From: Mustelus asterias
Taxonomy: Eukaryota
Length of the DNA: 64,000 nucleotides
Assembly: GCF_964213995.1 (NCBI RefSeq)
Contig: NW_027590224.1
Span: forward strand, 310,001-374,000
Direction: 5' to 3'
Part shown: piece by piece, positions 3,036-62,110 of the stretch
How positions within the stretch are numbered: the stretch's first letter is position 1
Layout: the number at the start of each line of letters is the position of its first letter
Program-made: the position numbers and the translations under genes
The notes under the pieces: generated by a model
Told to the model about the DNA's origin: nothing
Databases searched by the model: none
What the model saw: the letters and a program-made list of their open reading frames with translations, nothing else

Positions 3036-3270
3036 ACTGAATGTGAAACTGGGCAGGAAGTGTGAGTGTTAGAATGTCTGTTTACTCTGACTGCTGCTGC
3101 ACTGTGGTCATTGTGACTTCTCATTAATATAAGATTCTCTGAACTCCTCCATCTCAGCGGTTTAGAGAATGAATTCCAGAACTGAGGAGCCAGGCAGATG
3201 AAGATAATGGTGGGGTGAGGTAAATCAAGGGATACTCCAGATACCAGAATTGGAGGAACACAGAAATCTC

Positions 3271-5879
3271 GGAGGGTTGTAGGGGCTAGAGGAGGTTACA
3301 GAGATACGGAAGAGTGTAGGGACTGGAGGAGGTTACAGAGATAGGGAGGGGTATAGGGCTGGAGGAAGTTACAGAGATAGGGAAGGTTGTCGGGGCTGGA
3401 GGAGGTTACAGAATAGGGAGGGTTGTAGGGGCTGGAGGAGGTCACAGAGATAGGGAGGGGTGTACGGGCTGGAAGAGGGTACAGAGATAGGGAGGGTTGT
3501 AGGGATTAGAGGAGGTTACAGAGATAGGGAGGGGTGTAGGGGTTGGGGGAGGTTACAGAGATAGGGAGGGTTGTAGGGACTGGAGGAGGTTATAGAGATA
3601 GGGAGGGTTGTAGGGGCTGGAGGAGGTTACAGAGATAGGGAGGGGTGTAGGGCCTGGAGGACGTTACAGAGATAGGGAGGGTTGTAGAGGCTGAAGGAAG
3701 TTACAGAGATACGAAGGGTTGTAGGGGCTGGAGGAGGTTACAGAGATAGGGGTGTAGGGGCTGGAGGAGGTTACAGAGATAGGGAGGGTTGTAGGGGCTG
3801 GAGCTGGTTACAGAGATAGGGTTGTAGGGACTGGAGGAAGTTACAGAGATAAGGAGGGTTGTAGGGGCTGGAGGAGATTACAGAGATAGGGAGGGTTGTA
3901 GGGACTGGAGCAGGTTACAGAGATAGGGAGGGTTGTAGGGACTGGAGGAAGTTACAGAGATAAGGAGGGGTGTATGGGCTGGCGCACGTTACAGAGATAG
4001 AGAGGTGTGTAGGAGCTGGAGGAGGTTACAGAGATAGGGAGGGTTGTAGGGGCTGGAGGAGATTACAGAGATAGGGAGGGTTGTAGGGGCTGGAGCAGGT
4101 TACAGAGATAGGGAGGGTTGTAGGGACTGGAGGAAGTTACAGTGATAGGGAAGGTGGTCGGGGCTGGAGGAGGTTACAGAGATAGGGAGTGTTGTAGGGG
4201 CTGGAGGATGTTAGAGAGATAGGGAGGGTTGTAGGGACTGGAGGAGGTTACAGAGATAGGGAGGGTTGTAGGGGCTGGAGGAGATTACAGAGATAGGGAG
4301 GGTTGAAGGGGCTGGGGGAGGTTCCAGAGATAGGGAGGGGTGTTGGGGCTGGAGGAGGTTCCAGAGATAGGGAGGGTTGTAGGGGCTGGAGGACGTTACA
4401 GAGAGAGGGAGGGTTGTTGGGGCTGAAGGACGTTACAGAGATAGGGAGGGTTGTAGGGGCTGTTGGAGGTTACAGAGATAGAGGTGTAGGGGCTGGAGGA
4501 GATTACAGAGATAGGGAGGGTTGTAGGGGCTGGAGGAGGTTAGAGAGATAGGGAAGGTTGTCAGGGCTGGAGGAAGTTACAGAGATAGGGAGTGTTGTAG
4601 GGGCTGCAGGAGGTTACAGAATAGGGAGGGTTGTAGGGGCTGGAGGACGTTACAGAATAGGGAGGGTTGCAGAGGCTGGAGGAGGTTACAGAGGTAGGGA
4701 ATGGTGTAGAGGCTGGAGGACGTTACAGGGATAGGGAGGGTTGTAGGGGCTGGAGGAGGTTACAGAGATAGGGAGGGGTGTAGGGGCTGGAGGACATTAC
4801 AGAGATAGCGAGGGTTGTTGGGGCTGGAGGAGGTTACAGAGATAGGGAGTGGTGTAGGGGCTGGAGGACGTTACAGAGATAGGGAGGGTTGTAGGGGTTG
4901 GAGGAGGCTACATAGATAGGGGTGTGGGGGCTGGAGGAGATTACTGAGATAGGGAGGCTTGTCAGGGCTGGAGGAGGTTACAGAGATAGGGAGGAGTGTA
5001 GGGACTGTAGGAAGTTACAGAGATAGGGTTGTCGGGGCTGGAGGAGGTTACAGAGATGGAGAGGGGAATAGGGGCTGGAGGAGGTTACAGAATAGGGAGG
5101 GTTGCAGAGGCTGGAGGAGGTTACAGAATAGGGAGGGTTGTAGTGGCTGGAAGAGGTTACAGAGGTAGGGAATGGTGTAGAGGCTGGAGGACGTTACAGG
5201 GATAGGGAGGGTTGTAGGGGCTGGAGGAGATTACTGAGATAGGGAGGGTTGTCGGGGCTGGAGGAGGTTACAGAGATAGGGAGGGTTGTCGGGGCTGGAG
5301 GAGGTTACAGAGATAGGGAGTGGTGTAGGGGCTGGAGGACGTTACAGAGATAGGGTTGTAGAGGCTGAAGGATGTTACAGAGATAGGGGGGGCTGTAGGG
5401 GTTGGAGGAGGCTACATAGATAGGGATGTGGGGGCTGGAGGAGATTACTGAGATAGGGAGGGTTGTCGGGGCTGGAGGAGGTTACAGAGATAGGGAGGAG
5501 TGTAGGGACTGTAGGAAGTTACAGAGATAGGGTTGTCGGGGCTGGAGGAGGTTACAGAGATGGGGAGGGGAATAGGGGCTGGAGGAGGTTACAGAATAGG
5601 GAGGGTTGTAGGGGCTGGAGGAGGTTACAGAATCGGGAGGGTTGTAGGGGCTGTTTGAGGTTTCATAGATAGGGAGGGGTGTAGCGGCTGGAAGTGGGTT
5701 CAGAGATAGGGAGGGTTGCAGGGACTGGAGGAGGTTACAGAGATAGGGAGGGGTGTAAGGGCTGGAGGAGGTTACAGAGATAGGGAGGGTTGTAGGGGCT
5801 GGAGGAGGTTATAGAGATAGGGTGTAGGGGCTGGAGGAGGTTACAGAGATAGGGTGTGTTGTCGGGGCTGGAGGAGGTT
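3271..5879. repeat. 37-bp G-rich minisatellite, about 70 units, with a ~504-bp higher-order duplication
   Basis: Unit GAGATAGGGAGGGTTGTAGGGGCTGGAGGAGGTTACA. ORFs 4959-5168 and 5463-5672 are near-identical at a 504-bp offset. Confidence 0.97.
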
Positions 5880-6594
5880 TGTGGTGATACTATACCTTTA
5901 AGAAATGTATTTATACCATGTTTCTTGTCAGGTGTATGTTTAACATTCAGCTGTTTTTCATGGTTCCGATTTGTCTGCACCAGCCAGCCCACATGCTGAG
6001 AATGCGGGCTAATGATTGACCTTAGCTCCGGATGTGTTGTTTTAATCTGAGTTCATGCATATTTGTTTATTTTGGTTTCCCCTGGGGTTCAGAATCGGGT
6101 TTTGATCAGGGGTTGATTGACAGAGGCAGATCATGTGATTCGGCAGGTCTGAGCTTGCAGGGAAAAGCACAATTCTCTTTGATTTTAAACAGTCAGTTTC
6201 TGCTTGGTCCTGAAAGAGCAAGAGGTGTCACTCATTGTCTCCCTTTCTCCAGAGCTGTTCAAAAAGCTCTAAGACTGTTAAGAAGCACAAACATACCTGC
6301 GTGTCAGAGTTCAAGTCTCTCAGAGAAATGTTGTTTGATAGAGATAGGTCAGCAGTTAGGAATTGTATCTTGTCATGTTTAAATATTTCAACTTATAAAA
6401 TTTACACTAATTTATTCATGAACGTTAAACTGTGTTGTTAAATAAAGTTTGTTTTAATAGAAGCTTCCTCGTGTGTCAGTAGAATCACAGCAGATAAGGA
6501 GTGAGACACCTCACACTAATGCCAAAATACAAAAACCTGGGATCTAGCTGGGCTTCATAACATACTTTGCAGTTTCTGCTCTGGTACTCTGACA
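5880..6594 (+). mobile_element. 5' LTR of the Gmr1-type Gypsy element
   Basis: TG...CA ends and AATAAA near 6441. Followed by TGGGGGCTC (tRNA-Pro-like primer-binding site) at about 6600. Start resembles the solo LTRs at 16037 and 38749. Confidence 0.8.
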
Positions 6595-7892
6595 AAAACT
6601 GGGGGCTCTGACGGCATTAAAAACTATAATTCCTTGTTTGGTTTGGGATTATTGAACTCAAAGACAGTGGATGTTGAGTATTGGTGTTTTCTTTCCAGGT
6701 ATTGTTTTCGGTTCGTGTAATAAGGGGCTCTTTCAATGGCTAAAGTTTTTCTGGGTGTGAAATCACTCATTCGGAGCGGTTTACAAAAGATGGTCAAACC
6801 AAGGCTTTTGGAATTGGCAAACAAGCTGCAGTTGACTTTGCCTGAAGGGTGAAAAGGTGGAGTTATTCACTGTGATAGCTCAACATTTAAAATCACCAGT
6901 AACACAGTCAGAAGCATTGAGATTAGCTAGAATTCAGTTACAAATGAAATAGCTGGCATTAGAAGCAAAAGAAAGGCAGAGAATGATAATTTCAGCAGAA
7001 CAAAGAGAGAACGAATTAAAGGAAGCAAAATTGTGACAGTTTGAATTGCAATTAACAGCAGCAGAAAAAGAAAGAATAGCAATTGCAGAACGAACTGCAA
7101 CAAAGAGAGAAAAAAGGGAGAGAGATTTTGAACTTCAGAAAATGGAACTGAAAAGTGAGCTTAAACTGGTGGAGGCAAAGATAAAGGTTGGAAGTTATGA
7201 TGAGGGTAGTGAGGAAACACAAACCCATTAGAGTTAGAGGTCTGATGAGGATCTGTTTAAATATGTTCAAGCACTGCTAAGGTTTGATGAGAAGGATGTA
7301 GAAGCCTTTTTCATTTCATTTGAGAAAGTAGTTAAACAATAAAATGGCCACAAATCATGTGGGTATTGTTGGTTCAAACGAAGTTGGCAGGTAGAGCTAG
7401 TGAGGTGTTTGCACCACCATCAGAGGAGGTATCTATGGATTATGATGAGGTGAATAAAGCCATCTTAGGTGCATATGAACTAGTGCCAGCAGCCTACAAA
7501 CAGGCTTAGAAATCAAAAGAAGGAACCAGGTCAAACTTATATAGCATTTGAAAGAATCAAACAAAGTAACTTGGACAGGTGGATAAGAGCACTGAAAATA
7601 GACCAGACATTTGGCACTCTTAGGGAAATGGTTATTTTAGAGGAGTTTAAAAATTAACTTCCCGAAGTAATGAGATCTCACGCGGAAGAGCAGAAGGTTA
7701 AAACTGCAAGACTGGCAGCAGAAATGGCAGAAGATTCTGAGTTGGTGCATAAATCAAGATTTGGGTTTCGACATCAATTTCAATCTGTGAGGGATAGAAA
7801 CTGGGGAAAAGAGAAATCATCAGGAGTAAAGGCAAAGGAGATTTTATTGGAGATAGTAAAGATAGTTTACCTCAGGTTAAAAATGAAACATA

Positions 7893-10635
7893 TGAACATA
7901 GAACATAACAGCGCAGTGAAGGCCCTTCGGCCCTCGATGTTGCGCCAACCTGAGAAACCAATCTAAAGCCCATCTAACCTACACTATTCCAATATCATCC
8001 ATATGTTTATCTAATGACCATTTAAATGCCCTTAATGTTGGCGAGTCCACTACTGTTGCAGGCAGGGCATTCCACGCCCTTACTACTCTCTGAGTAAAGA
8101 ATCTACCTCTTACATCTGTCCTATATCTATCACCCCTCAATTTAAAGCTATGTCCCCTCGTGCAAGCATCACCATCCGAGGGAAAAGGCTCTCACTGTCC
8201 ACCCTATCTAATCCTCTGATCATCTTGTATGCCTCTATTAAGTCACCTCTTAACCATCTTCTCTCTAACGAAAACAGCCTCAAATCCCTCAGCCTTTCCT
8301 CATAAGACCTTCCCTCCATACCAGGCAACATCCTGGTAAATCTCCTCTGCACCCTTTCCAATGCTTCGACATCCTTCCTATAATGTGGCGACCGCACCAG
8401 AGTTTTATACAGCTCTGGTGCGGCCAGAGTTAAGAAGAGCCAGGAGGGGACATGAGAAGCCTTTGGCAGGTAGGATCAAGGAAAACCCTAAAGCTTTCTA
8501 TAGGTTTGTCAGGAGTAAAAGAATGACAAGGGTAAGATTAGGGCCAGTCAAGGACAGGAGTGGGAAGTTGTGCGTGGAGTCTGAAGAGATAGGAGAGGCA
8601 CTAAATGAATATATTTCGTCGGTATTCACACTTGAGAGGGACAGTGTTGTTGAGGGGAGTACTGAGATGCAGGCTGTTGGACTGGATGGGATTGATGTTC
8701 ATAAGGAAAAGGTGTTAGCAATTCTGGAAAGGGTAAAAATAGATAGGTCCCCTGGGCCGGATGGGATTTATCCTAGGATTCTCTGGGAGGCTAGAAAGGA
8801 GATTGCAGAGCCTTTGGCTTTGATCTTTGTGTCGTCATTGTCTACAGGAACAGTGCCAGAAGACTGGAGGATAGCAAATGTTGTCCCCTTGTTCAAGAAG
8901 GGGAGTAGGGACAATCCTGGTAATTATAGACCGGTGAGCCTTACTTCTGTTGTGGGCAAAGTATTGGAAAGGATTATAGGAGATAGGATTTATAATCACC
9001 TAGAAAGGAATAATTTGATTAGGGATAGTCAGCACGGTTTTGTGAAGGGTAGGTCATGCCTCACAAACCTTATTGAGTTCTTTGAGAAGGTGACCAAAGA
9101 GGTGGATGAGGGTAAAGTGGTTGATGTGGTGTACATGGATTTCAGCAAAGCGTTTGATAAGGTTCCCCATGGTAAGCTTTTACAGAAAATACGGACACAT
9201 GGGATTGAGGGTGATTTAGTGGTTTGGATCAGGAATTGGCTAGCTGTCAGAAAACAAAGGGTGGTGGTTGATGGGAAATATTCATCCTGGAGTTCAGTTA
9301 CTAGTGGTGTACCGCAAGGATTTGTTTTGGGGCCACTGCTGTTTGTCATTTTTATTAATGACTTGGATGAGGGCGTGGAAGGATGGATTAGTAAATTTGC
9401 GGATGACACTAAAGTCGGTGGAGTTGTAGACAGTGTGGAGGGAAGTGGCAGGTTACAGAGGGACATAGATAAGCTGCAGAGCTGGGCTGAGAGGTGGCAA
9501 ATGGAGTTTAATGCGGAAAAGTGTGAGGTGGTTCACTTTGGAAGGAGTAACAGGAATACAGAGTACTGGGCTAATGGTAAGATACTTGGTAGTGTGGATG
9601 AACAGAGGGATCTGGGTGTCCATGTGCATAGATCCCTGAAAGTTGGCACCCAGGTTGATAGGGTTGTTAAGAAGGCATATGGTGTGTTAGCTTTTATTGG
9701 TAGAGAGATTGAGTTTCGGAGCCAGGAGGTCATGCTGCAACTGTACAAAACTCTGGTGCGGCCGCATTTGGAGTATTGCGTACAGTTCTGGTCGCCGTAT
9801 TATAGGAAAGATGTGGAAGTGTTGGAAAGGGTGCAGAGGAGATTTACCAGGATGTTGCCTGGGATGGTGGGAAAATCGTATGAGGAAAGGCTGAGGGGCT
9901 TGAGGTTGTTTTCGTTAGAGAGAAGAAGGTTAAGAGGTGACTTGATAGAGGCATACAAGATGATCAGAGGATTAGATAGGGTGGATAGTGAGAGCCTTTT
10001 TCCTTGGATGGTGTTGGCTAGCACGAGGGGACATAGCTTTAAATTGAGGGATGAGAGATATAGGACAGATGTTAGAGGTAGGTTCTTTACTCAGAGAGTA
10101 GTAAGGGCGTGGAATGCCCTGCCTGCAGCAGTGGTGGACTCGTCAACGTTGAGAGCGTTCAAGTGGTTATTGGATAAACATATGGATGATATTGGAATAG
10201 TGTAGATTAGAGGGGCTTTAGATTGGTACCACTGGTCGGCGCAACATCGAGGGCCGAACGGCCTGTACTGCGCTGTAATGTTCTATGTTCTAACATGACC
10301 TCAAGGCTTCAAAACTCAATCCCTTTACCAATAAAAGATAACACACCATACGCGTTCTTAACAACCCTATCAACCTAGATGCCAACTTTCAGGGATCTAT
10401 GCACATGGACACCGAGATCTCTCTGCTCATCCACCCTACCAAGTATCTTACCATTAGCCCAGTACACTGTATTCCTGTTACTCCTTCCACAGTGAATCAC
10501 CTCACACTTTTCCGCATTAAACTCCATTTGCCACCTCTCAGCCCAGCTCTGCAGCTTATCTATGTCCCTCTGTAACCTGCAACATTCTTCCGCACTATCC
10601 ACACCTCCACCGACTTTAGTGTCACCGACTTTAGT
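7893..10635 (-). mobile_element. CR1 3' fragment (minus) inserted in Gypsy gag, itself split by a plus-strand CR1
   Basis: 3' tail (GAACATA)n at 7893. Minus ORFs 8137-8397 and 10375-10692 are contiguous parts of the CR1 RT C-terminus. Gypsy sequence resumes at TGAAGGTGGAAGAG. Confidence 0.85.
8431..10292 (+). mobile_element. Young 5'-truncated CR1 LINE with an uninterrupted RT ORF
   Basis: 614-aa ORF 8361-10205 with NYRPVSLTS, QHGF, YMDFSKAFDKV, GVPQG and KFADDTK motifs. No endonuclease domain. 3' tail ATGTTCTATGTTCTA. Confidence 0.95.
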
Positions 10636-12886
10636 GAAGGTGGAAGAGAAATTTAAAACCTCAGATATTTTCATTGTAACAAATTTGGACACACAAAGTT
10701 GCAGTGTTGGTGTTTTAAGAAAAGCACTGGGAAGACAGAGGTGGTAAAACAGGATAAGCCAGCAGGGCTTGTTATGGTGCTAAAAGATGCCACAGTTGAA
10801 ACTGAAGAGGTGCAAAAGAATGTACAGCCTGTTCAGGGATTGGTTGGTTAAAAAAAGTGCCAGATTTCTTTAAAGAATTTACTTGTGTGGGTAAAGTTAC
10901 TCATGTGCTTGGAGGAATAGGTAAAGAAGTTAAAATTTAAAGAGATATGGGAGCAAGTCAATCTTTAATGTTGAGAGATAAGGAGATATGTAGTTTGGAA
11001 AGAGTATTGCCAGAAAAGGTGGTAGCGTGTGGAATTCATGGTGAAAAGAATCGTATTCCATTATGTAAGGTACGGTTGGAGAGTCCGGTTAAAAGTGATG
11101 AAGTGGTGGTAGGAGTAATAGAGAAATTATTTTTTTCAGGGATTCAGTTAATCCTGGGTAATGATATAACTAGATCACAGTGATACCTACTGAAGTTGAA
11201 AAGCCAATGGAAAATCAAACAAGATCACAAAGCCACAGGTTGAGACTGGAGGAGGAGAAATTGGAGAGTAAAGATAAGGAGGTTGAGGTACAGTTATCAG
11301 AAAAAATCTTTGACCAGATGGTTGATCAAGAACAGGAGGCGGATCAAGCGGATATCTTTAGTTCAGGGAAGTTGGCAGAATTACAACTGAAAGATGCAGA
11401 GATAAAGTAGTATCAGAAAGCATAGACAGAAGGAGAATCTGAGTGTATACTGGAATATTATTACATTAGAAATAATGTCTTAATGAGGAAGTGGAGATCT
11501 TTACATATTCAGGCAGATGAAAAATGGGCAGAAGTTCATCAAGTTGCATTACCGGTGGGTTATAGAAAGGTTTTGCAGGTGGCATATGAGGTTCCAATAG
11601 GAGGTCATTTGGGAGTAAGGAAAACTCAGGCAAAAATAGAAAAATTCTTTTATTGGCCTGGACTGCATAGGGAAGTGTTGAATTTTGCCAGATGTTTCTC
11701 GCATGTCAGGTGACAGGAAAACATCAAGCGGGCATCAAACCAGCACCTTTAATACCCATTCCCACATTTGAAGAACCTTTCACGAGGATCCTAACTGATT
11801 GTGTGGGACCCCTGCCCAAAATGAAATGTGAGAATCATATCTGTTGACCATAATGGATGTGTCTACTAGATTTCCTGAGGCCTTTGCATTACGTAATATA
11901 ACAGCGAAAATGATTGTCGAGGAATCACTTAAAGCTTCTACCGGATGGGGACTGTCCACAGAAATCCAATAAGATCAAGGATCCAATTTTATGGCAAAGT
12001 TATTTCGGGAAGTTATGGATAGCTTAGGAGTAAGGCAATTTGAAACAACTGCATATTATCCAGAATCACAGGGAGCATTAGAACTGTGTCAAACTTTGAA
12101 GACCATGTTGAGGGCCTGTAGTCAGGGTTATCCAGAAAATTGGGACAAAGAAATTCCATTTGTACTTTTTGCAATTACAGATGCACCTCCTGAAGCAACA
12201 AAATTCAAACCATTTGAATTGATTTTTGGTCATGAGAGGATCATTTAAATTGATCAAGGAGCAATTTGGTGAGTCAGTGTTCTGAGACTACATTGTTGAG
12301 ACTACATTATTGGACTATGTGTCAAATTTTAGGGAGAGATTAGCTCAGGCTGGAGAGTTGGCTCGACAGCATTTAAAAGGGGCACACCAGGCGATAAAAA
12401 AGCAGATAAGAGATCAAATATTCACAGTTTTGTTAGCGGGGAGAAAGTATTAGTACTATTACCAGTGGTAGGTGAACCATTAGAAGCAAGATTTAATCTG
12501 TCTTATCAAATTGAAAAAAGATTAATTGAGGTGAATTATTTGATAAGAAGGCAGATAGAAAGAAGAATCACAGAGTGTGGCATATTAATATATTTTAATA
12601 GAGAAGGACAGCAGAAGCAGGATGTGTTAATTGTTACAGCTCAGAGAGAAAAGATAAATCCAGATGATTCTGAATTTGACATTCCTCAAGTCAAATTGGA
12701 CAATGAGGAAGTAATCAGAAATTGGGATAAATTACTGAGTTACCTTCCAGAGGGTTACAATCGTGTAGAGCTATATGTAGGAACAAACTGGGAAATACCA
12801 AAGTAATTGTGCATGATGTAGATGTAGGAAATGTTGTTCCAATTTAACAACATACGTATCAACTTATTCCACTCAAGTTTGCAAAG

Positions 12887-13224
12887 GCTCAGGAGAAGCT
12901 GACATTTACTCAGACTGAGATGCAGCAGCTGGAAGTTTCAATCAAACACTACGATGGACTGGCTGATAGTTACAAATCTCGGTTAATGAAGACACAAATG
13001 GAGACATGAAATTGACAAATACAGAAAAGGAGAACAAGCTATTGGACGATGAATAAGGAAAGTAAGCAGGTATGGAGACAGATGCAAGAAAAGTTGCTGA
13101 TTTGGAGCCTGTTCCTGAGTTGTTGAAATTAACTGAGCATGAACTGCAGGACTGTCAACAGCAGCTTGTCATCTATAAGAACAAAAATGTAGATCAGTTG
13201 GTAGTCATATGTGATCTCAAGGTG
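12887..13224 (+). pseudogene. ODF2: Intron-less ODF2(-like) mRNA fragment captured inside the Gypsy element
   Basis: Translates (with frameshifts) to AQEKLTFTQTEMQQLEVSIKHYDGLADSYKSRLMKTQME...EKENKLL..MNKESKQVWRQMQEKL/ADLEPVPELLKLTEHELQDCQQQLVIYKNKNVDQLVVICDLK. This matches recalled ODF2 LEVQQLKASVKNYEGMIDNYKSQVMKTRLE...KENKILKDEMNKEIEAARRQFQSQLADLQQLPDILKITEAKLAECQDQLQGYERKNIDLTAIISDLR. ODF2L paralog not excluded. Confidence 0.8.
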
Positions 13225-13945
13225 GTGATGAGGAGCAGAAGCATTTTACTATCACAGACAGAAGAAAAGGACGAAGCTGCGAAGTAAGTCTGTTTGGTGA
13301 AACTGTACCATCACCGCCTAATGAACTGCTGAAATAATGAATATGCAGCTTACACAGCTGCAGACGCCCAGGGAAACAGTACTGTTCATAACTGATGTTC
13401 AAGTAAATTATGATGGTTTTCGCAACAGCATGGCTACCACAATGATCGCTAAAACCATAATTACAACAAATCCTGGCACCAAAGAAGACAATCTGCAATA
13501 TACCTTTGAAAAGAATACACAGAAAGTGATGAGGAAGATCCAGAGCAAACAAATGAATTAATAAACTATATTGGGCGGCACGGTAACACAGTGGTTAGCA
13601 CTGCTGCTTCACAGCTCCAGGGTCCCGGGTTCGATTCCCAGCTCGGGTCACTGTCTGTGTGGAGTTTGCACATTCTCCTCGTGTCTGCGTGGGTTTCCTC
13701 CGGGTGCTCCGGTTTCCTCCCACATCCAAAGATGTGCAGGTTAGGTTGATTGGCCAGGTTAAAAATTGCCCCTTAGAATCCTGGGATGCGTAGATTAGTG
13801 GGTAAATATGTGGGGGTAGGGCCTGGGTGGGATTGTGGTCGGTGCAGACTCGATGGGCCGAATGGCCTCCTTCTGCACTGTAGGGTTTCTATGATTTCTA
13901 TGATTGCAACAGAAAGATATACAATTAGAAAGAATTTTGAATGTA
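13225..13945 (+). pseudogene. MEIOB: Intron-less MEIOB mRNA fragment (OB fold) captured inside the Gypsy element, split by a later SINE
   Basis: EQKHFTITDRRKGRSCEVSLFGET...[43 protein letters not shown] matches recalled MEIOB [24 protein letters not shown]...[43 protein letters not shown]. Weakly continues after the SINE (DIQLERILNV). Confidence 0.85.
13573..13905 (+). mobile_element. V-SINE (HE1-like), tRNA head + V domain + CR1-type tail
   Basis: A/B-box head (GGTTCGATTCC), V core GTGTGGAGTTTGCACATTCTCC...GGTTTCCTCCCAC, tail TTTCTATGATTTCTATGA. Confidence 0.9.
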
Positions 13946-14025
13946 CCATTTGACAACAGTAGGGGGAGTTGGACTACTTGACCGAGGAACTAAGGCCAGT
14001 TATAAAGAAAGGGGACAGGGATATC

Positions 14026-14372
14026 ATGACCCTTCTGGATGGCCCTAAACACATCTGTGAAGTTGAGGAAACATGCAAGGGGACAGATTCTCTTTGACAA
14101 AGTCTGTGAGCAGCTCAACCTGATTTCACTTTGACATTTTAGAACTCTGAAAATCAAAATCAAAGCGAAGGGAATTACAAAGCAAATCCAAAGTGGTTTG
14201 TAGCATTTGCATTCAATGTAAAGTTTTGCCCTCCAGGTCCTGCCCAGCTCTTTGAGGACATCACCAGGATTAATTTACAATCGTGACAACGGATCCAGGC
14301 TCAGACTCAGAATCAAAGCAGGGTCAAGAACAGAGGGTGACCTCTGAAAAGAAAGAGGAAGCAGCTGAACAA
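14026..14372 (+). pseudogene. EPB41L3: Intron-less EPB41L3 (protein 4.1B)-like fragment with scrambled order: FERM exons, then the N-terminal exon
   Basis: 14026-14267 gives TLLDGPKHICEVE/KHARGQILFDKVCEQLNL...ITKQIQSG...AFNVKFCPPGPAQLFEDITR (4.1-family FERM N-lobe). 14283-14372 gives (M)TTDPGSDSESKQGQEQ, like the 4.1B N-terminus MTTESGSDSESKPDQE. Confidence 0.82.
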
Positions 14373-14551
14373 CAGCCATTTAATTTGAAGATTATAAATG
14401 TGGCAGGAAGAGAGAATGTGACTGCAGATGCTTTATCACGACTTTGCTCTAAAAGGATAGAAAGATCAATGTTGGAAAAGACTGGACGATGATCCTGTTT
14501 GATTTTGCATGTTTAGTGCCAGTATTGCTGTGAATCCTGAGAATTTCTTAT

Positions 14552-14700
14552 GTAAGAGTTTTAACAACACCAGGTTAAAGTCCAACAGGTTTATTTGGTA
14601 GCAAATGCCATTAGCTTTCGGAGCCCTGTTGGACTTTAACCTGGTGTTGTTAAAATTCTTACTGTGTTTACCCCAGTCCAACGCCGGCATCTCCACATCA
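14552..14700. mobile_element. Penelope-derived short inverted-repeat insertion
   Basis: Head-to-head copies of AACACCAGGTTAAAGTCCAACAGG, flanked by the direct repeat AATTTCTTATGTA. Confidence 0.8.
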
Positions 14701-15664
14701 TAATTTCTTATGTATCATACTGAATATAAAGTTTAAAATTTTCAATGAAAACATTAAAAAAACTGACCATGGAATTCCCCTGGGATGTTGAGTGAATGTT
14801 TTTGGCAAAACAACTAATTTGAGCCACTATCTAGAACTGATGTAAAACTGAAAACGTCAAGGAGATTGTAGGAGTCTAATTTTCACTTTTGACTTTCTCA
14901 GACAAGGGGCAATGTGTAGTAGGCTGAGGGTCTGGATTAATGCTGCTGATCTGTGTTTGGGGGGGATGTGAATTCTCATGATGGGCGTGGCGGGCACTCA
15001 TTACTTTCTGAGGTGGAGCTTAGAAATCCTTATTTGGTGCAATGTGTGTGGAATGGTTTTTTTAAGCTGTGAAACCATAGGCAGTGCACAGAAAGTCACA
15101 AAAATCCAACGACCAATAGTGACTGGGAAAGAAAGTCACCACTTGTGTTTTCATCGGTTAACCACATCGATCCAAATCTTCTGTTTGTATCGGAACAGTT
15201 CCAGTCGACTGTAATCACAGGAGAGTCTGTTACACTTACCGTTGTGTGCGGATTGTACTAGCTGAGATATAACTAAACTATATACAAATATACACAACGA
15301 GATGTTACTGTGCTGAAGTGAGGAACATTCTCCCTCTCGACTCTCAGTCATGTGTCTCTTACATCAACATTACGGGAGGTGCTATTTACACCATCCCACA
15401 CATTAAACCTTGCAACCCCAATACTGCATCTTCCCCAAATATTTTCCCATTTTCTTTCACATTAATATGTACCCATTCTCTTGTCCACCCATGCACCCAC
15501 TCCCGCCCACCGCAACCCTGAGTCTTTAACTTTACAGTTTCAGTCTGCCGGGAGGCTTCACCACACTCTCTGGTTGTGTTCTATTCAGACTTGGACAATC
15601 AGTCATCTCTCTCTCTCTCTTTGTTCTTTTTCTATACTTGGATTGTCTTCACTGAGAGTCGTAG

Positions 15665-16036: not shown

Positions 16037-16808
16037 TGTGACGATACTGTGCCTTTAAGACATGTATTTTAGTCATGTTTCTGTGCAGGATCTGTTTTAG
16101 CAGTTTTTTGTATTATTAGTGCCATTCTGTCTATAACTGGCACCCTGTATTGTTACTGCAGCAGCATAATTGCTTCTAATTGCTAGAATGTTTGTTTTAT
16201 TCTGGACTAATGCAGTTCTGTTGTTTTTAGTGGTTCCCCTGGGGTTTTACAGAGTAGGATTAGATTGATTGACAGGGAAGATCATATGACTGGATGGAGC
16301 TAGGCTTATACAGAGAATTCAAGGTTAGTTATTGTTTGGGAGCTGCAGAGAACTCTGGCGACTGGGAGCTGCCAGAGACTAGGTTTACTTCTCTGACGTT
16401 CTGCTGTTTGAGGATATATCCTTCTCTGGAAACTGCTGTCTGGATCTAAAAGTGTTAAAAGGCTGGAAATCTCACACCATGTGAGCATACTTTACTGTCA
16501 ACTAATTCTGAAGAAGGGTGTATGTCTATTTGGGTATTGCTTTAAATTGAAACTACAGAGATTGCTAGTTGTTAAGTGTTATACTTTGTCATGTTAAAGT
16601 ATTTTAATTGGTAAAAGTCAAGCTAATTATTTTAGCTATATTCTAACTATTCTTAAACACAGTTTGTTTTGATAAAAGCTTCCTAGTGGGTCAACTGCAT
16701 CATGCCTGGAGCGAAACATGCTCACCCTATTGCCAAACCCAAAGGCAAAAATTGGGGTCTTGGCTAACTTCATAATATACCTTGGAGTTTCTGATCGGCT
16801 CCCTAACA
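16037..16808 (+). mobile_element. Solo Gypsy LTR with 4-bp TSD GGAT, inserted in a LINE 3' fragment (about 15870-17070)
   Basis: TGTGACGATAC...CCCTAACA, with GGAT on both sides. Similar to the LTRs at 5880 and 38749. Confidence 0.88.
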
Positions 16809-26800: not shown

Positions 26801-27267
26801 GGGAACCTCCAGATGGTGGTGTTCCCATGTGTCTGTTTTTTAAAAAAAATTAATTTGTGGGACATGGGCATCGCTGGCTGGCCAGTATTTATTGCCCATC
26901 CCTAGTTGCCCTTGAGAAGGTGATGGTGAGCTGCCTTCTTGAATCGCTGCAGTCCACGTGCTGTGGGTTGACCCACAATGCCGTTAGGGAGGGAATTCCA
27001 GGATTTTGACCCAGCGACTTCAAAGAAATGGCTATATATTTCCAAGTCAGGAAGGTGAGTGACTCGGAGGGCAACTTGCAGGTGGGGATGTTCCCAGGTA
27101 TCTGCTGCCCTTGTCCTTCTAGATGGCAGCGGTTGTGGGTTTGGAAGGTGCAGCCTAAGGAACCTTGGTGAGATGCTGTGGTGCATCTTGTATATGGTAC
27201 ACACGGCTGTCACTGTGCGTTGGTGGTGGAGGGGTTGGATGTTTAAGGTGGAGGATGGGTGTCATCC

Positions 27268-27558
27268 TGTGACAGTGCAGCACTCCCTCAGTACTGACCC
27301 TCTGACAGTGCGGCACTCCCTCAGTACTGACCCTCTGACAGTGCAACACTCCCTCAGTACTGACCCTCTGACAATGCAGCACTCCCTCAGTACTGACCCT
27401 CTGACAGTGCGGCACTCCCTCAGTACTGACCCTCTGACAGTGCAGCACTCCCTCAGTACTGACCCTCTGACAGTGCGGCACTCCCTCAGCACTGGCCCTC
27501 TGACAGTGCGGCACTTCCTCAGTACTGACCCTCTCAGTAACGCGCTCCCTCAGTACTG
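27268..27558. repeat. 33-bp minisatellite, about 9 units (DeuSINE-derived)
   Basis: Unit CAGTGCAGCACTCCCTCAGTACTGACCCTCTGA; reverse complement of the 35258-35657 array. Confidence 0.95.
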
Positions 27559-27683
27559 AAGTGACTTTCTGGCTTATGTGCTTTGTGATGAAGGATCCTA
27601 CATTGATATCACATCTTTCATATTCTCAGCATCTCAAAATGTTTCACAGTCAATGCAAGTTAACTGATCTTGATTCTTTTTAG

Positions 27684-35139: not shown

Positions 35140-35940
35140 GTAGCACTGTCACTCTCCCTCTCACTCTCTGAGTCAGAAGGACATGGTTTTACTCACCACA
35201 CCAGAGACATCAGTGCAGGATCTTAGCCAGCACTCGTCATTACAGAGAGAGAGCTATACTGTCAGAGGGTCAGTACTGAGGGAGTGCCGCACTGTCACAG
35301 GGTCAGTACAGAGGGAGTGCTGCACTGTCACAGGGTCAGTACAGAGGGAGTGCTGCACTGTCAGAGGGTCAGTTCTGAGGGAGTGCCGCACTGTCAGAGG
35401 GTCAGTACTGAGGGAGTGCTGCACTGTCAGAGGGTCAGTGCTAAGGGAGTGCTGCACTGTCAGAGGGTCAGTACTGAGGGAGTGCTGCACTGTCAGAGGG
35501 TCAGTACTGAGGGAGTGCCGCACTGTCAGAGGGTCAGTACTGAGGGAGTGCCGCACTGTCAGAGGGTCAGTACTGAGGGAGTGCTGCACTGTCAGAGGGT
35601 CAGTACTGAGGGAGTGCTGCACTGTCAGAGGGTCAGTACTGAGGGAGTGCTGCAGTACCGAAATCCTATCATCTTTCAGATGACACATTAAATCGAGGCT
35701 CCGCGTATCCTTTAAGGTGGGTGTAAACGTTCCCATGGCCACTCTTTGGAAAATGAGCAGGGGTGAGTGCACCTTATTTTCCTGCAGCCAATATTTATCC
35801 CTTAGCTAATATTGCTTTAAAAATGCAAAATGTTTGTCATCAAATTGTTCAGTGTGGGATCCTGCTGTGTACAAACTGGTTATTGCGTTTCCTATGAGAC
35901 ATCAGTAACACCCTTGCAAAGGATCCCATTGGATCTCTTT
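35140..35940 (+). mobile_element. DeuSINE with an internal 33-bp minisatellite expansion (35258-35657, about 12 units)
   Basis: SINE head remnant (CTCTGAGTCAGAAGG), then the array, then Deu-like TCTTTCAGATGACACATTAAATCGAGGC... Confidence 0.7.
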
Positions 35941-38748: not shown

Positions 38749-39613
38749 TGTGACGATGCTTTACCTTTAAGAAATGTATTTTAATCATATTTCTCTGCAG
38801 GATGTTTCGAGGAGTCCCTGGCATTTCTCACAGCCGTTTTGTCTACAACTGGTAACCTCTATTGTTACTGAAGCAGTATAATTGATACCAATTAATCTGA
38901 ACTAATGCAATTGTCTGTTTAGTATTTCCCTGGGATTGCAGAGTAGAGTTTGATTGGGGTGTTTGACAGGTCAGGTCATATGACTGGGGACAGCTCGGCT
39001 TTCACAGAGGATTCCAGCTTAGTTGCTGTTTTTTTTCAGATGCTCTTTGGAGTTGAGAGAGAGCAGTGTCTGCTTTCTACTCTCTGGAGCTGGAGATTCT
39101 GCTGTCTGAGTGTTGCTGTTTTGGAAGCTGTAGGGAGAGAGGTATCCTTTCTTGTCTCTGAAGTCTGAAGACTGGAAGCTGCTAGAAACTGGGTTTACTT
39201 CTCTGCTTAGCTGCCTTGAGGGTATATCCTTGTCTGAAAACTGCTGTTTGATATTTTGTCCAGAAGTGTTACAAAACTGGAAATCTAATATCATGTGAGC
39301 ATACCTGTTTTAGTGTTAACTAATTCTGAAGAAGGGTGTATGTCTATGGGGTATTGCTTTTAAATTGGAACAACAGAGATAGCTAGCTGTTAAGAATTAC
39401 ACTGTGTCATGTTTAAGTTTTGCAATTGGTAAAAGTTATGCTAATTCTTTTCATTATATTCTAACTGTGTTCTTAAATAAACTGTTTGATAAAAGGTTCC
39501 TAGTGGGTCACTTGAATCATACCTGGAGTGAAACACCTTATGCTCAAATGTAAAACTTAGGGTCTAGGCTAACTTCACAAAACACCTTGGAGTTTCTGGC
39601 CTGGGTCATTACA
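38749..39613 (+). mobile_element. Solo Gypsy LTR with TSD CCAC, nested in the Harbinger
   Basis: TGTGACGATGC...GGTCATTACA, with CCAC on both sides. Homologous to 16037-16808. Confidence 0.88.
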
Positions 39614-41540: not shown

Positions 41541-41608
41541 AAGGGCACCCCATGGTCCCCTGGAACGGGGGCAGCCCAGCAATGGCAGAGAGTCCTTCAG
41601 CTGGGCAT

Positions 41609-41853
41609 CTGGTTCCTGTATTAAAGGTGTTCAGACAGATAAACCCAGAATCTGGTTCTTGGATTAAAGGGGTTCAGACAGATAATCCCAGAGTCTGGTC
41701 CCTGTATTAAAGGGGTTCAGACAGATAAACCCAGAGTCTGGTCCCTGTATTAAAGGGGTTCAGACAGATAAACCCAGGGTCTGGCTCCTGTATTAAAGGG
41801 GTTCAGACAGATAAACCCAGGGTCTGGCTCCTGTATTAAAGGGGTTCAGACAG
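41609..41853. repeat. 43-bp minisatellite, about 6 units
   Basis: Unit CTGGTCCCTGTATTAAAGGGGTTCAGACAGATAAACCCAGAGT. Confidence 0.93.
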
Positions 41854-42844
41854 TAGATGGCGCAGTTTGTCAGCCAATAGAAATGGAGCATCATCGCCAT
41901 CAGGTGCGGGCTGTCAGTATTGCAGGGGGACACTGGAGCAAATTTAAAAACTAAACCTGCATTTATATAGCGTTTTTCACGACAACACAGCTCTTCATAA
42001 TAATTTAATGAGGATAAAAACCTCTAAAATATTTCCTTCCATGTCATAACTCATATGTGAAGAATGGATATTTATGTGGAGGTAAGAACATAAGAATTAG
42101 GAGCAGGAGTAGGCCATCTGGCCCCTCGAGCCTGCTCCGCCATTTAATAAGATCATGGCTGATCTTTTTGTGGATTCAGCTCCACTTACCTGCCCGCTCA
42201 CCATAACCCTTAATTCCTTTACTGTTCAAAAATTTATCTATCCTTGCCGTAAAAACATTCAATGAGGTAGCCTCAACTGGGCAGGGAATTCCACAGATTC
42301 CCAACCCTTTATGTGAAGAAGTTCCTCAACTCAGTCCTAAATCTCCTCCCCCCTATTTTAAGGCCATGGCCCCTAGTTCTAGTTTCACCTGCCAGTGGAA
42401 ACAACCTCCCTGCTTCTATCTTATCTATTCCCTTCATAATCTTATATGTTTCCATAAGATCTCCCCTCATTCTTCTGAATTCCAATGAGTACAGCCCCAG
42501 TCTGCTCAGTCTCTCCTCATAAGCCAACCCTCTCAACTCCGGAATCAACCTAGTGAATCTCCTCTGCACCCCCTCCAGTGCCAGTATATCCTTTCTCAAG
42601 TAAGGAGACCAAAACTGTACACAGTACTCCCGGTGTGGCCTCACCAGCACCTTATACAGCTGCAACATAACCTTACTGTTTTTAAACTCCATCCCTCTAG
42701 CAATAAAGGGCAAAATTCCATTTGCCTTCTTAATTACCTGCTGCATCTGCAAACCAACTCCTTGTGATTCTTGTACAAGGACACCCAGGTAGGTCCCTTT
42801 GCACAACAGCATGTTGCAATTTTTTACCATTTATAATTATGATT

Positions 42845-59913: not shown

Positions 59914-60387
59914 AACTCAGGAGCTGAAAACTGACCCTGAAATGTAAAGACAGGAACGGGTGGGGGAGGGGGTACCCGAGGATGTGGAAAGGGGTTTGGA
60001 CAGGTTGGGGGGAGAGTGATGGATGGGTACACAGTGTAGGGGATGAGGCAGCACCTAATGGTCTGAAAGGGGCTGAGGAAGGAGCCAAACACAAGCAGAG
60101 AGGCACCAGATCAAATCAGAGAGTTCACGGTTTATAATTAGCAGTTATTCCCCAGCACAGACTATGAGTAACACACACATTCTCCAGTAGAAAATCAAAA
60201 TCACTGTCTCGTGATGTCCCTCCTCCTCACCAAATCCCCCATCCCTGCTCCCCCCAATTCTATCGCCATCCCCAGCTGTCGGCACTGTCCCCCTGTAGTC
60301 TCAAGAACCCACTTCCTCACCTCCCTCTCAGCTGTCACTCTCCTGTGCCTCTCCCTTCCTGTCTCCCTTTTCCCCTATCCTCTCTCT

Positions 60388-62110
60388 GTCTGTTATTCTA
60401 CATAAAAACCATCCCGAACCCCATGATTAGATTCTAGTCTGTAACTCACTCCAGGGTATCTGTTATTCTATATATAAACCATCCCGAACCTCTCGGTTAG
60501 ATTCCAGTCTGTAACTCACTTCGGGGTATCTGTTATTCGATATATAAACCACCCCGAACCCCTCGATTAGATTCTAGTCTGTAACTCACTCTGGGGTATC
60601 TATTATTCGATATATAAACCCCCCCGAAACCCTCGATTAGGTCCCAGACTGTAACTCACTCCCAGGTATCTGTTATTCTATATATAAACCACCCCAAACC
60701 CCTCAATTAGATTCCAGACTGCAATTCACTCCTGCGTATCTGTTATTCTATATAGAAACCCCCCCTGAAACCCTCAATTAGGTTCTAGACTGTAACTCAC
60801 TCCCGGGTATCTGTTATTCTATATATAAACCACCCCGAACCCCTCGATTAGATTCCAGTCTGTAACTCACTTCCGGGTATCTGTTATTCTATATATAAAC
60901 CACCCCAAACCCCTCAATTAGATTCCAGACTGTAACTCACTTCCGGGTATCTGTTATTCTATATATAAACCACCCCGAACCCCTCAATTAGATTCCAGAC
61001 TGTAACTCACTTCCGGGTATCTGTTATTCTATATATAAACCACCCCAAACCCCTCAATTAGATTCCAGACTGTAACTCACTTCCGGGTATCTGTTATTCT
61101 ATATATAAACCACCCCGAACCCCTCGATTAGATTCCAGTCTGTAACTCACTCCTGGGTATCTGTTATTCTATATATAAACCACCCCGAACCCCTCGATTA
61201 GATTCCAGTCTGTAACTCACTCCCGGGTATCTGTTATTCTATATATAAACCATGCCAAACCCCTCGATTAAATTCCAGTCTGTAACTCACTCCCGGGTAT
61301 CTGTTATTCTATATATAAACCACGCCAAACCCCTCGATTAAATTCCAGTCTGTAACTCACTCCCGGGTATCTGTTATTCTATATATAAACCACCCCGAAC
61401 CCCTCAATTAAATTCCAGTCTGTAACTCACTCCCGGGTATCTGTTATTCTATATATAAACCACCCCGAACCCCTCAATTAGATTCCAGCCTGCAACTCAC
61501 TACCAGGTATCTATTATTCTGTATATAAACCAACCCAAACCCCTCGATTGGATTCCAGTCTGTAACTCACTCCGGGGTATCTGTTATTCCATATATAAAT
61601 TACCCCGAACCCCTCAATTAGATTCCAGTCTGTAACTCACTCCCGGGTATCTGTTATTCTATATATAAACCACCCCGAACCCCTCAATTAGATTCCAGTC
61701 TGTAACTCACTCCCGGGTATCTGTTATTCTATATATAAACCACCCCGAACCCCTCAATTAGATTCCAGTCTGTAACTCACTCCCGGGTATCTGTTATTCC
61801 ATATATAAACCACCCCGAACCCCTCAATTAGATTCCAGTCTGTAACTCACTCCCGGGTATCTGTTATTCTATATATAAACCACCCCGAACCCCTCAATTA
61901 GATTCCAGTCTGTAACTCACTCCCGGGTATCTGTTATTCTATATATAAACCACCCGAACCCCTCGATTAGATTCCAGTCTGTAACTTACTCCCGGGTATT
62001 GTTTATTCTGTATATAAACCACCCCGAACCCCTCGATTAAATTCCAGTCTGTAACTCACCCTTGCATATTGTTTATTCTATATATAAACACCTCAAACCC
62101 CTTGATTGGG
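60388..62110. repeat. 70-bp minisatellite, about 24-25 units
   Basis: Unit CTGTTATTCTATATATAAACCACCCCGAACCCCTCAATTAGATTCCAGTCTGTAACTCACTCCCGGGTAT. Confidence 0.97.

Follow-up and report, generated by a model that had tools for sequence, protein, structure and literature searches.

Three back-splice-type joins in one cassette: probable serial capture of host circular RNAs by a Gypsy-type element of a shark

Within a stretch of 64,000 nucleotides (nt) of the Mustelus asterias genome (contig NW_027590224.1, positions 310,001 to 374,000; hereafter the window), host coding sequence lies inside a long terminal repeat (LTR) element with its parts in the wrong order. FERM-coding sequence ...CATCACCAG stops at position 14267 and is followed by 15 nt, GATTAATTTACAATC (14268-14282), and then by GTG where the start codon would be expected. 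How could downstream exons come to precede the first coding exon? The original prediction read the junction as the back-splice join of a circular RNA (circRNA) of EPB41L3. We found that this join, which stood up, is one of three: two more, from ODF2 and MEIOB, lie in the same cassette, in a family of well over a hundred copies. The host is a Gypsy-type LTR element with the integrase before the reverse transcriptase (RT), and its RT and most of its RNase H have been replaced by 12893-14376, a 1.5-kb cassette of host complementary DNA (cDNA). We consider it highly probable (about 0.92) that such an element reverse-transcribed host circular RNAs in the shark germline by template switching, in three steps that were followed by helper spread.

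Donor-to-upstream-acceptor joins in three genes

The parent of the EPB41L3 piece was located on C7. Its ATG exon (C7:86021187-86021002, minus strand) is preceded by a pyrimidine tract and an AG that abuts the 15 nt; the exon ending in EDITR (coding exon 5; C7:85961892-85961817) is followed immediately by GT. Since the EDITR exon lies 59.4 kb downstream of the ATG exon in the genome, the join 14267|14268 connects a donor to an upstream acceptor. The 115 nt around the join match C7 at 93%, beginning at the join itself, and the first 109 nt of the ATG exon in the window are 92.9% identical to the parent. The remaining pieces were placed on four further exons within 200 kb downstream of the ATG exon; all five exons, 620 nt in total, have AG/GT ends. 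Proteins named band 4.1-like protein 3, the best of them labelled Mustelus asterias, match exon B at 100% identity, and this protein aligns colinearly over the parent region, so that both halves of the join come from one gene. The order is not given linearly by a tandem exon duplication in the parent, for each of the five exons occurs once in a 400-kb region around the gene, where the sole extra match is an 18-nt reverse match to exon D (E 0.031), and a genome-wide search with the 5' part of exon B returned the parent only. Two details of the original prediction needed correction: the captured stretch, given as 14026..14372, is 14023-14376, and the ATG at 14026 does not mark a start, being a switch point within exon B that has mutated.

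The other parts of the cassette map to ODF2 (C13) and MEIOB (C23) (98% for the ODF2 exon and 93% for MEIOB, against proteins of those names), neither of which was chosen for having a back-splice join. The MEIOB piece, which sits within ODF2 exon X4, consists of exons m6-m9 followed by exon m3 from 37.7 kb upstream. At this join (13567|13568), GT follows the donor at C23:21734964, AG precedes the acceptor at C23:21697248, and no bases are shared in either the mRNA or the precursor context. The ODF2 piece runs through X1-X4 and continues with X0 from 11.7 kb upstream; here (13932|13933), GT follows the donor at C13:4053611, AG precedes the acceptor at C13:4065313, and 1 and 2 bases are shared in the mRNA and precursor contexts, respectively. 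Exon duplicates were absent from the 200 kb around each of these parents. All nine internal exon joins checked in the cassette are spliced, with the introns gone, the B-C join of EPB41L3 carrying one extra base. The implied circles would measure 620 nt (EPB41L3), ~745 nt (MEIOB) and ~900 nt (ODF2), the latter two sizes including two exons that are absent from the cassette and bounded only roughly. We take MEIOB to be meiosis-specific and ODF2 to be a protein of the sperm tail and centriole, roles that would fit a male germline setting.

A truncated cassette copy (L092:4200-5530; C23:21681200-21682530), with the EPB41L3 part and its join, the RNase H end and an LTR, lies ~2.4 kb upstream of the first MEIOB coding exon, possibly by chance, given the copy number.

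Copies, intermediates and the order of capture

A search of the 3.68-Gb genome with 14020-14380 as the query gave 266 first-look candidates (275 in another search), and the best 40 of the 266 were all 72-80% identical to the query, the window itself aside. The scored matches, when pooled, fall at 123 or more distinct loci on 35 contigs, and the candidate numbers suggest that there may be hundreds of copies. We then tested the joins in 40 distinct copies, 39 from the search loci and one found upstream of MEIOB, counting a join as exact if it had no gap and matched at 12 or more of 16 positions per side; this strict test replaced a laxer one that had given 0-3 false ungapped positives in the controls. 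The EPB41L3 join was exact in 31 of the 40, the MEIOB join in 21 and the ODF2 join in 19, whereas eight linear-continuation controls scored 0/40 each and shifted registers 0-2. When the EPB41L3 join was trimmed by 1-3 nt on either side, 0-1 copies remained. Joins to the exons that flank each circle on the outside were found in 0/40. Exons from outside the circles were likewise absent from the maps of the 40 copies and of two further loci (L145 and L146), which is a weak discriminator, as the fragments are short.

The copies are 81-87% identical to the parent exons (segment means) and 80-83% identical to each other, and they share 4-18 non-parent sites per segment as well as the extra base at the B-C join, which argues for one origin and an old burst. 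Breakpoints and alleles shared across loci mark a secondary amplification of one chimera. Five clustered matches at C15:80.77-84.40 Mb, which are 87-88% identical and cover the same query range, suggest segmental or tandem duplication of one copy.

Passage from one template to another left a signature different from that of the joins. All six switch points are mid-exon and share 4-9 nt (observed lengths; GAGA, GGAACA.AA, GAAGAAA, AAAG, and CAGGAAGA or ACAGC), in contrast to the 0 nt of the MEIOB and 1-2 nt of the ODF2 back-splice joins. The alternatives in the last pair reflect the return to the element, which most copies make at CAGGAAGA, while the window and L004 do so ~20 nt earlier, at ACAGC, probably through a further switch with a helper.

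ODF2-only and ODF2-plus-EPB41L3 copies show that there were three successive captures and then amplification. L016 has X4 intact and MEIOB absent; full coverage of X3-X4 was seen in 7 of the best 40 matches, L145 among them. A search with the part of X0 beyond the EPB41L3 switch gave three candidates, all accounted for by the parent and two loci, L145 and L146. Both are ODF2-only elements, in which X1-X4, the join, X0 and part of Y1 are followed by a return to the element (2 nt of the join are eroded in L145, and a deletion follows it in L146). At 21 ODF2 sites the three-gene copies share a non-parent base. L145 has the parent base at 7 of these and the shared base at 9, L146 at 8 and 11, and the window at 1 and 16, with L016 showing 6 and 7 among the 14 sites that it covers; EPB41L3 rows for L145 and L146 and X1 and X2 rows for L016 were spurious local alignments and were dropped from this comparison. 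About half of the three-gene alleles are present in L145, L146 and L016, which at most of the remaining sites still have the parent base; we therefore regard them as early branches of one origin.

These forms suggest the following sequence of events. In step 1, during minus-strand synthesis, RT would have left the element RNA just past RNase H for the ODF2 circle, copied ~707 nt of it across the back-splice join and returned near the RT start. In step 2, in a later round, RT would have begun on an intact helper RNA, switched to the EPB41L3 circle, copied ~400 nt including its join and then continued on the ODF2 part of a step-1 element. Since the return point of the ODF2-only form lies downstream of that of later forms, this step needed a third template, the intact helper RNA, or else an EPB41L3-only element; no such element with a longer exon B was found, in a search blind to one with the same 5' breakpoint. 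In step 3, ~521 nt of the MEIOB circle would have replaced 32 nt of ODF2 X4. The switches presumably took place in virus-like particles. Each product would have lost RT, kept its LTRs, gag and integrase sequence and been spread and integrated by helpers, and the three-gene form, to judge from the candidate counts, would have reached hundreds of copies, all of which are now decayed.

The three-gene form also appears in other organisms. Loose ends of contigs aligned to the ODF2 parent run from X3 into the X4-MEIOB chimera in organism I (run X22, 23 contigs), organism A (run X1, 3 contigs; its status as RNA is a guess) and organism H (run X21, 5 contigs), which indicates that this form is older than their split. 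Run X22's own intron contig differs from the ODF2 parent by 65 other letters and 68 gap letters over ~1,320 nt. Among the matches listed for contigs of four sets against the ODF2 parent, we saw the linear X4-X5 splice and one contig that skips X3, and no ODF2 back-splice end; contigs drop rare forms. One organism I contig (L124:8702-9656, run X22) has 41 nt of X4 joined to X3, as in a MEIOB-less copy, and early subfamilies may exist there. The contig that skips X3, by joining ODF2 X2 directly to X4, is from organism A (L124:8675-8705, run X1 record 2). Records 4 and 6 of the same run, which is guessed to be RNA, are 2.4-kb contigs with the chimeric cassette, at depths of 9 and 32; some copies may be transcribed in that organism.

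Circular templates and their rivals

What was predicted about the EPB41L3 join itself, namely that it follows splice sites exactly on both sides, within one gene and with no duplication behind it, agrees with what we found; that its template was a covalent circle is the more indirect part of the claim, and from a join alone a circle cannot be told apart from a linear RNA that was trans-spliced or carries repeated exons. Trans-splicing of two precursors of the same gene would give linear templates with repeated exons and the same donor-to-upstream-acceptor join, leaving the LTR template switching unchanged, and each captured fragment is shorter than one circle, so that no rolling-circle repeat proves circularity. 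Such trans-splicing would, however, have been needed in three of three genes, and most non-colinear joins in animal transcriptomes belong to circles; we consider it improbable. In the mouse work of Dong et al. (2016; PMC4897178), the portion of the text available takes such joins as marks of circRNAs while acknowledging other routes. Ordinary RT switches on linear mRNA or precursor that happened to land on splice sites would profit from the AG/G that exon ends share, from switching that is plainly frequent in this element, and from the EPB41L3 join, whose donor end has CCAG in common with the intron before the acceptor and which, with one G after the join, shows 5 nt of identity to the precursor context. 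That join is by itself less clean than the MEIOB join, and the mRNA-context half of its microhomology is missing, the upstream untranslated exon not having been located. Chance switching is nevertheless close to refuted by the MEIOB join, which shares nothing in either context, and is hard to reconcile with the 1-2 nt at the ODF2 join and with six between-template switches that are all mid-exon; hitting donor and acceptor exactly is expected at ~5-8e-5 per gene (exon counts and lengths being approximate), and we hold this explanation to be very unlikely. Hardly credible at all is a genomic tandem duplication of the exons that each parent once had and later lost, the order having been linear in the mRNA. 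The captures are old enough for such a loss, to judge from the identity of the copies to their parents, yet all three genes would have had to duplicate the exons independently and to lose the duplicates cleanly, and no trace is left in the 400 kb (EPB41L3), 200 kb (MEIOB) and 200 kb (ODF2) covered.

Several observations count against circular templates or complicate their reading. The exact-join test is failed by 9, 19 and 21 of the 40 copies (EPB41L3, MEIOB and ODF2, respectively), because the locus ends before the join or has insertions or deletions; the window itself fails for MEIOB, through a short interspersed element (SINE) 7 nt after the join, and for ODF2, through a deletion. No fragment exceeds one turn of its circle. 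Inverted repeats flanking the ODF2 or MEIOB circles were not found in today's introns, and around EPB41L3 inverted (7) and direct (5) matches occur alike. No target-site duplication or true LTR pair was recovered for any cassette copy. Finally, the three events fall in one element lineage and so are not fully independent draws. An 85% LTR pair at L030 was rejected for dating as a duplicated flank, since it continues beyond the LTR end on either side; the partner LTR of L088 was not among the best 40 of 5345 candidates, and the region upstream of L021 is interrupted.

Circular templates accommodate the captured lengths easily. The fragments cover 79% (ODF2), 65% (EPB41L3) and 70% (MEIOB) of their circles, so that, if all templates were circular, the chance that all three cross the join would be ~0.36. 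The host RNA pool is dominated by linear mRNA, from which three of three would be very unlikely. It is therefore likely that this Gypsy family captured circRNAs selectively, its particles or its RT favouring circles over the far commoner linear mRNAs, and with two of the three genes unselected for a join, enrichment of LTR particles or RT for circRNA templates is a specific and testable claim. The likeliest reason for the enrichment, to which we would give even odds, is that circles, being untranslated and resistant to exonucleases, persisted inside late germ cell particles or were enriched there.

The host element and known systems

The coordinates of the element and its cassette are collected in the table. 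That the host is a Gypsy/LTR element, as predicted, was borne out by integrase and RT_RNaseH context, both in the window and in a relative (L144/L136; C13:49.57 Mb) that matches 11609-12898 at 76% identity and extends into RVT_1 and RT_RNaseH. The host cDNA is bounded on both sides by discontinuous element sequence, the RT start before it and the RNase H end after it. A profile match identified Integrase_H2C2 (E 4.4e-10), and Pfam was uninformative on the ODF2 piece, the protease and the integrase core of the window. Reading frames are broken in all element copies viewed, and nothing suggests a present function for the decayed cassette copies. By pattern, a polypurine tract precedes the 3' LTR in 12 of 40 copies. 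The long form, without the subfamily deletion seen in the window, is found in L005, L009, L011, L018, L085, L088, L114 and others. We take the primer-binding-like site to be of the tRNA-Pro type and the long interspersed element (LINE) insertions in gag to be CR1.

Table. Features of the element and its host-cDNA cassette in the window
Feature	Position	Strand	Remarks
5' LTR of the Gypsy element	5880..6594	+	TG...CA; same LTR after the RNase H end in other copies
Decayed primer-binding-like site	6600-6608		Follows the 5' LTR
Putative decayed gag-like region	6700..7880	+	By position; CCHC knuckle again from near 10670
LINE insertions that later split gag	7881..10620	.	621-aa open RT-like frame 8340-10205, with inverted pieces of its own family on either side
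Decayed protease-like and integrase region, upstream of RT	10941..12250	+	Integrase_H2C2 match
Start of the element's RT (first ~110 nt)	12780..12892	+	First switch into ODF2 at ~12893, GAGA shared
ODF2 X1 (from nt 18), X2, X3 and first 14 nt of X4, spliced	12893..13232	+	Parent C13:4058649-4053611 (-)
MEIOB m6-m9 with back-splice join 13567|13568 to the initial 7 nt of upstream m3	13233..13574	+	
Later tRNA-derived SINE insertion	13575..13903	+	This copy only
Rest of MEIOB m3 start	13904..13925	+	Remaining m3, m4 and, in ODF2 X4, most of the 3' half lost through a subfamily deletion
ODF2 X4 end, back-splice join 13932|13933, X0 nt 1-94	13926..14026	+	Join eroded in the window
EPB41L3 exon B end, exons C, D and E, spliced	14023..14267	+	Entry through a switch at AAAG
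EPB41L3 ATG exon, first 109 nt, with back-splice join 14267|14268 before it	14268..14376	+	
Return to the element's RNase H end	14372..14516	+	At ACAGC; window copy without 3' LTR

Around the element, a short SINE with a 13-nt target-site duplication occupies 14552-14714, and the element's 3' LTR is missing after 14516. A solo LTR of a related subfamily at 16037-16808 (TG...CA, with the 4-nt target-site duplication GGAT) is 78% like an LTR near 39160-39598 and is not the 3' LTR of the cassette element. Minisatellite arrays lie at 3238-5800, 27233-27562, 35170-35730, 41565-41896 and 60266-62106, with units of 37, 33, 33, 43 and 70 nt, respectively; the two with 33-nt units are copies of one another in inverted orientation.

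We take the integrase-before-RT order to mark the element as a Gmr1-like Gypsy, a label from gene order and not from a tree. It is like these elements in the order of protease, integrase, RT and RNase H (window and relative together) and in its TG...CA LTRs, and unlike them in that the cassette form is non-autonomous, with RT and most of RNase H replaced by host cDNA. In the accessible text of PMC11117352, Gmr is a Gypsy branch of fishes with gag and pol in one frame; as far as that text and that of PMC6015446 go, they add nothing on capture.

A literature search, with most subscription journals and bioRxiv supplements outside its range, returned no serial or multi-circle circRNA capture, no shark case and no report of circEPB41L3, and what is available of PMC5408686 and PMC12747553 cites only the mouse work for circRNA retrocopies. 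That work (PMC4897178) concerns 33 mouse circRFWD2 (Rfwd2) pseudogenes with LTR-rich flanks marked MMERVK10C-int. CircRNAs lack the poly(A) tail that LINE-1 needs, and their route into DNA is left open there, the available portion calling the mechanism 'mysterious'. The shark family shows such a route stepwise, in mid-exon microhomology switches, intact back-splice joins and surviving intermediates. The joins are DNA-level evidence, free of modern library artefacts, that ODF2, MEIOB and EPB41L3 were back-spliced at these sites in the ancestral shark germline, probably as circular templates, and they predict three exact joins for living sharks. If capture was indeed selective, LTR elements would be a general route of circRNAs into genomes, and in old shark genomes one could read a fossil record of the circRNAs of the germline and their back-splice sites, a record that predates the split of the species sharing the element.

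Like the mouse circRFWD2 copies, as far as these are described in the available text, the shark copies have an exact back-splice join in DNA, no introns, exons of the circle only, no poly(A), an LTR context and many copies. Unlike them (one gene per case, in a mammal, with an endogenous retrovirus), they unite three genes in one Gypsy element and retain switch-point microhomologies and intermediates. Tan et al. (2016; PMC5131818) describe, in the text available, LTR template switching with microsimilarity, multi-gene chimeras and secondary spread, in a model that uses cellular mRNA; the words 'circular' and 'circRNA' occur 0 times in the main text. The shark element resembles this LTR-mediated retroposition, and the maize Bs1 element (PMC5408686), as the accessible parts of both present them, in its partial host cDNAs within a discontinuous LTR element, its microsimilarity, its chimeras and its amplification. 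It differs from the PMC5131818 retrocopies, as they appear there, in that every piece it captured crosses a back-splice join. Single circRNA pseudogenes beside LTR sequence and multi-gene LTR capture were thus both known already, and serial, all-circular capture with surviving intermediates joins the two kinds.
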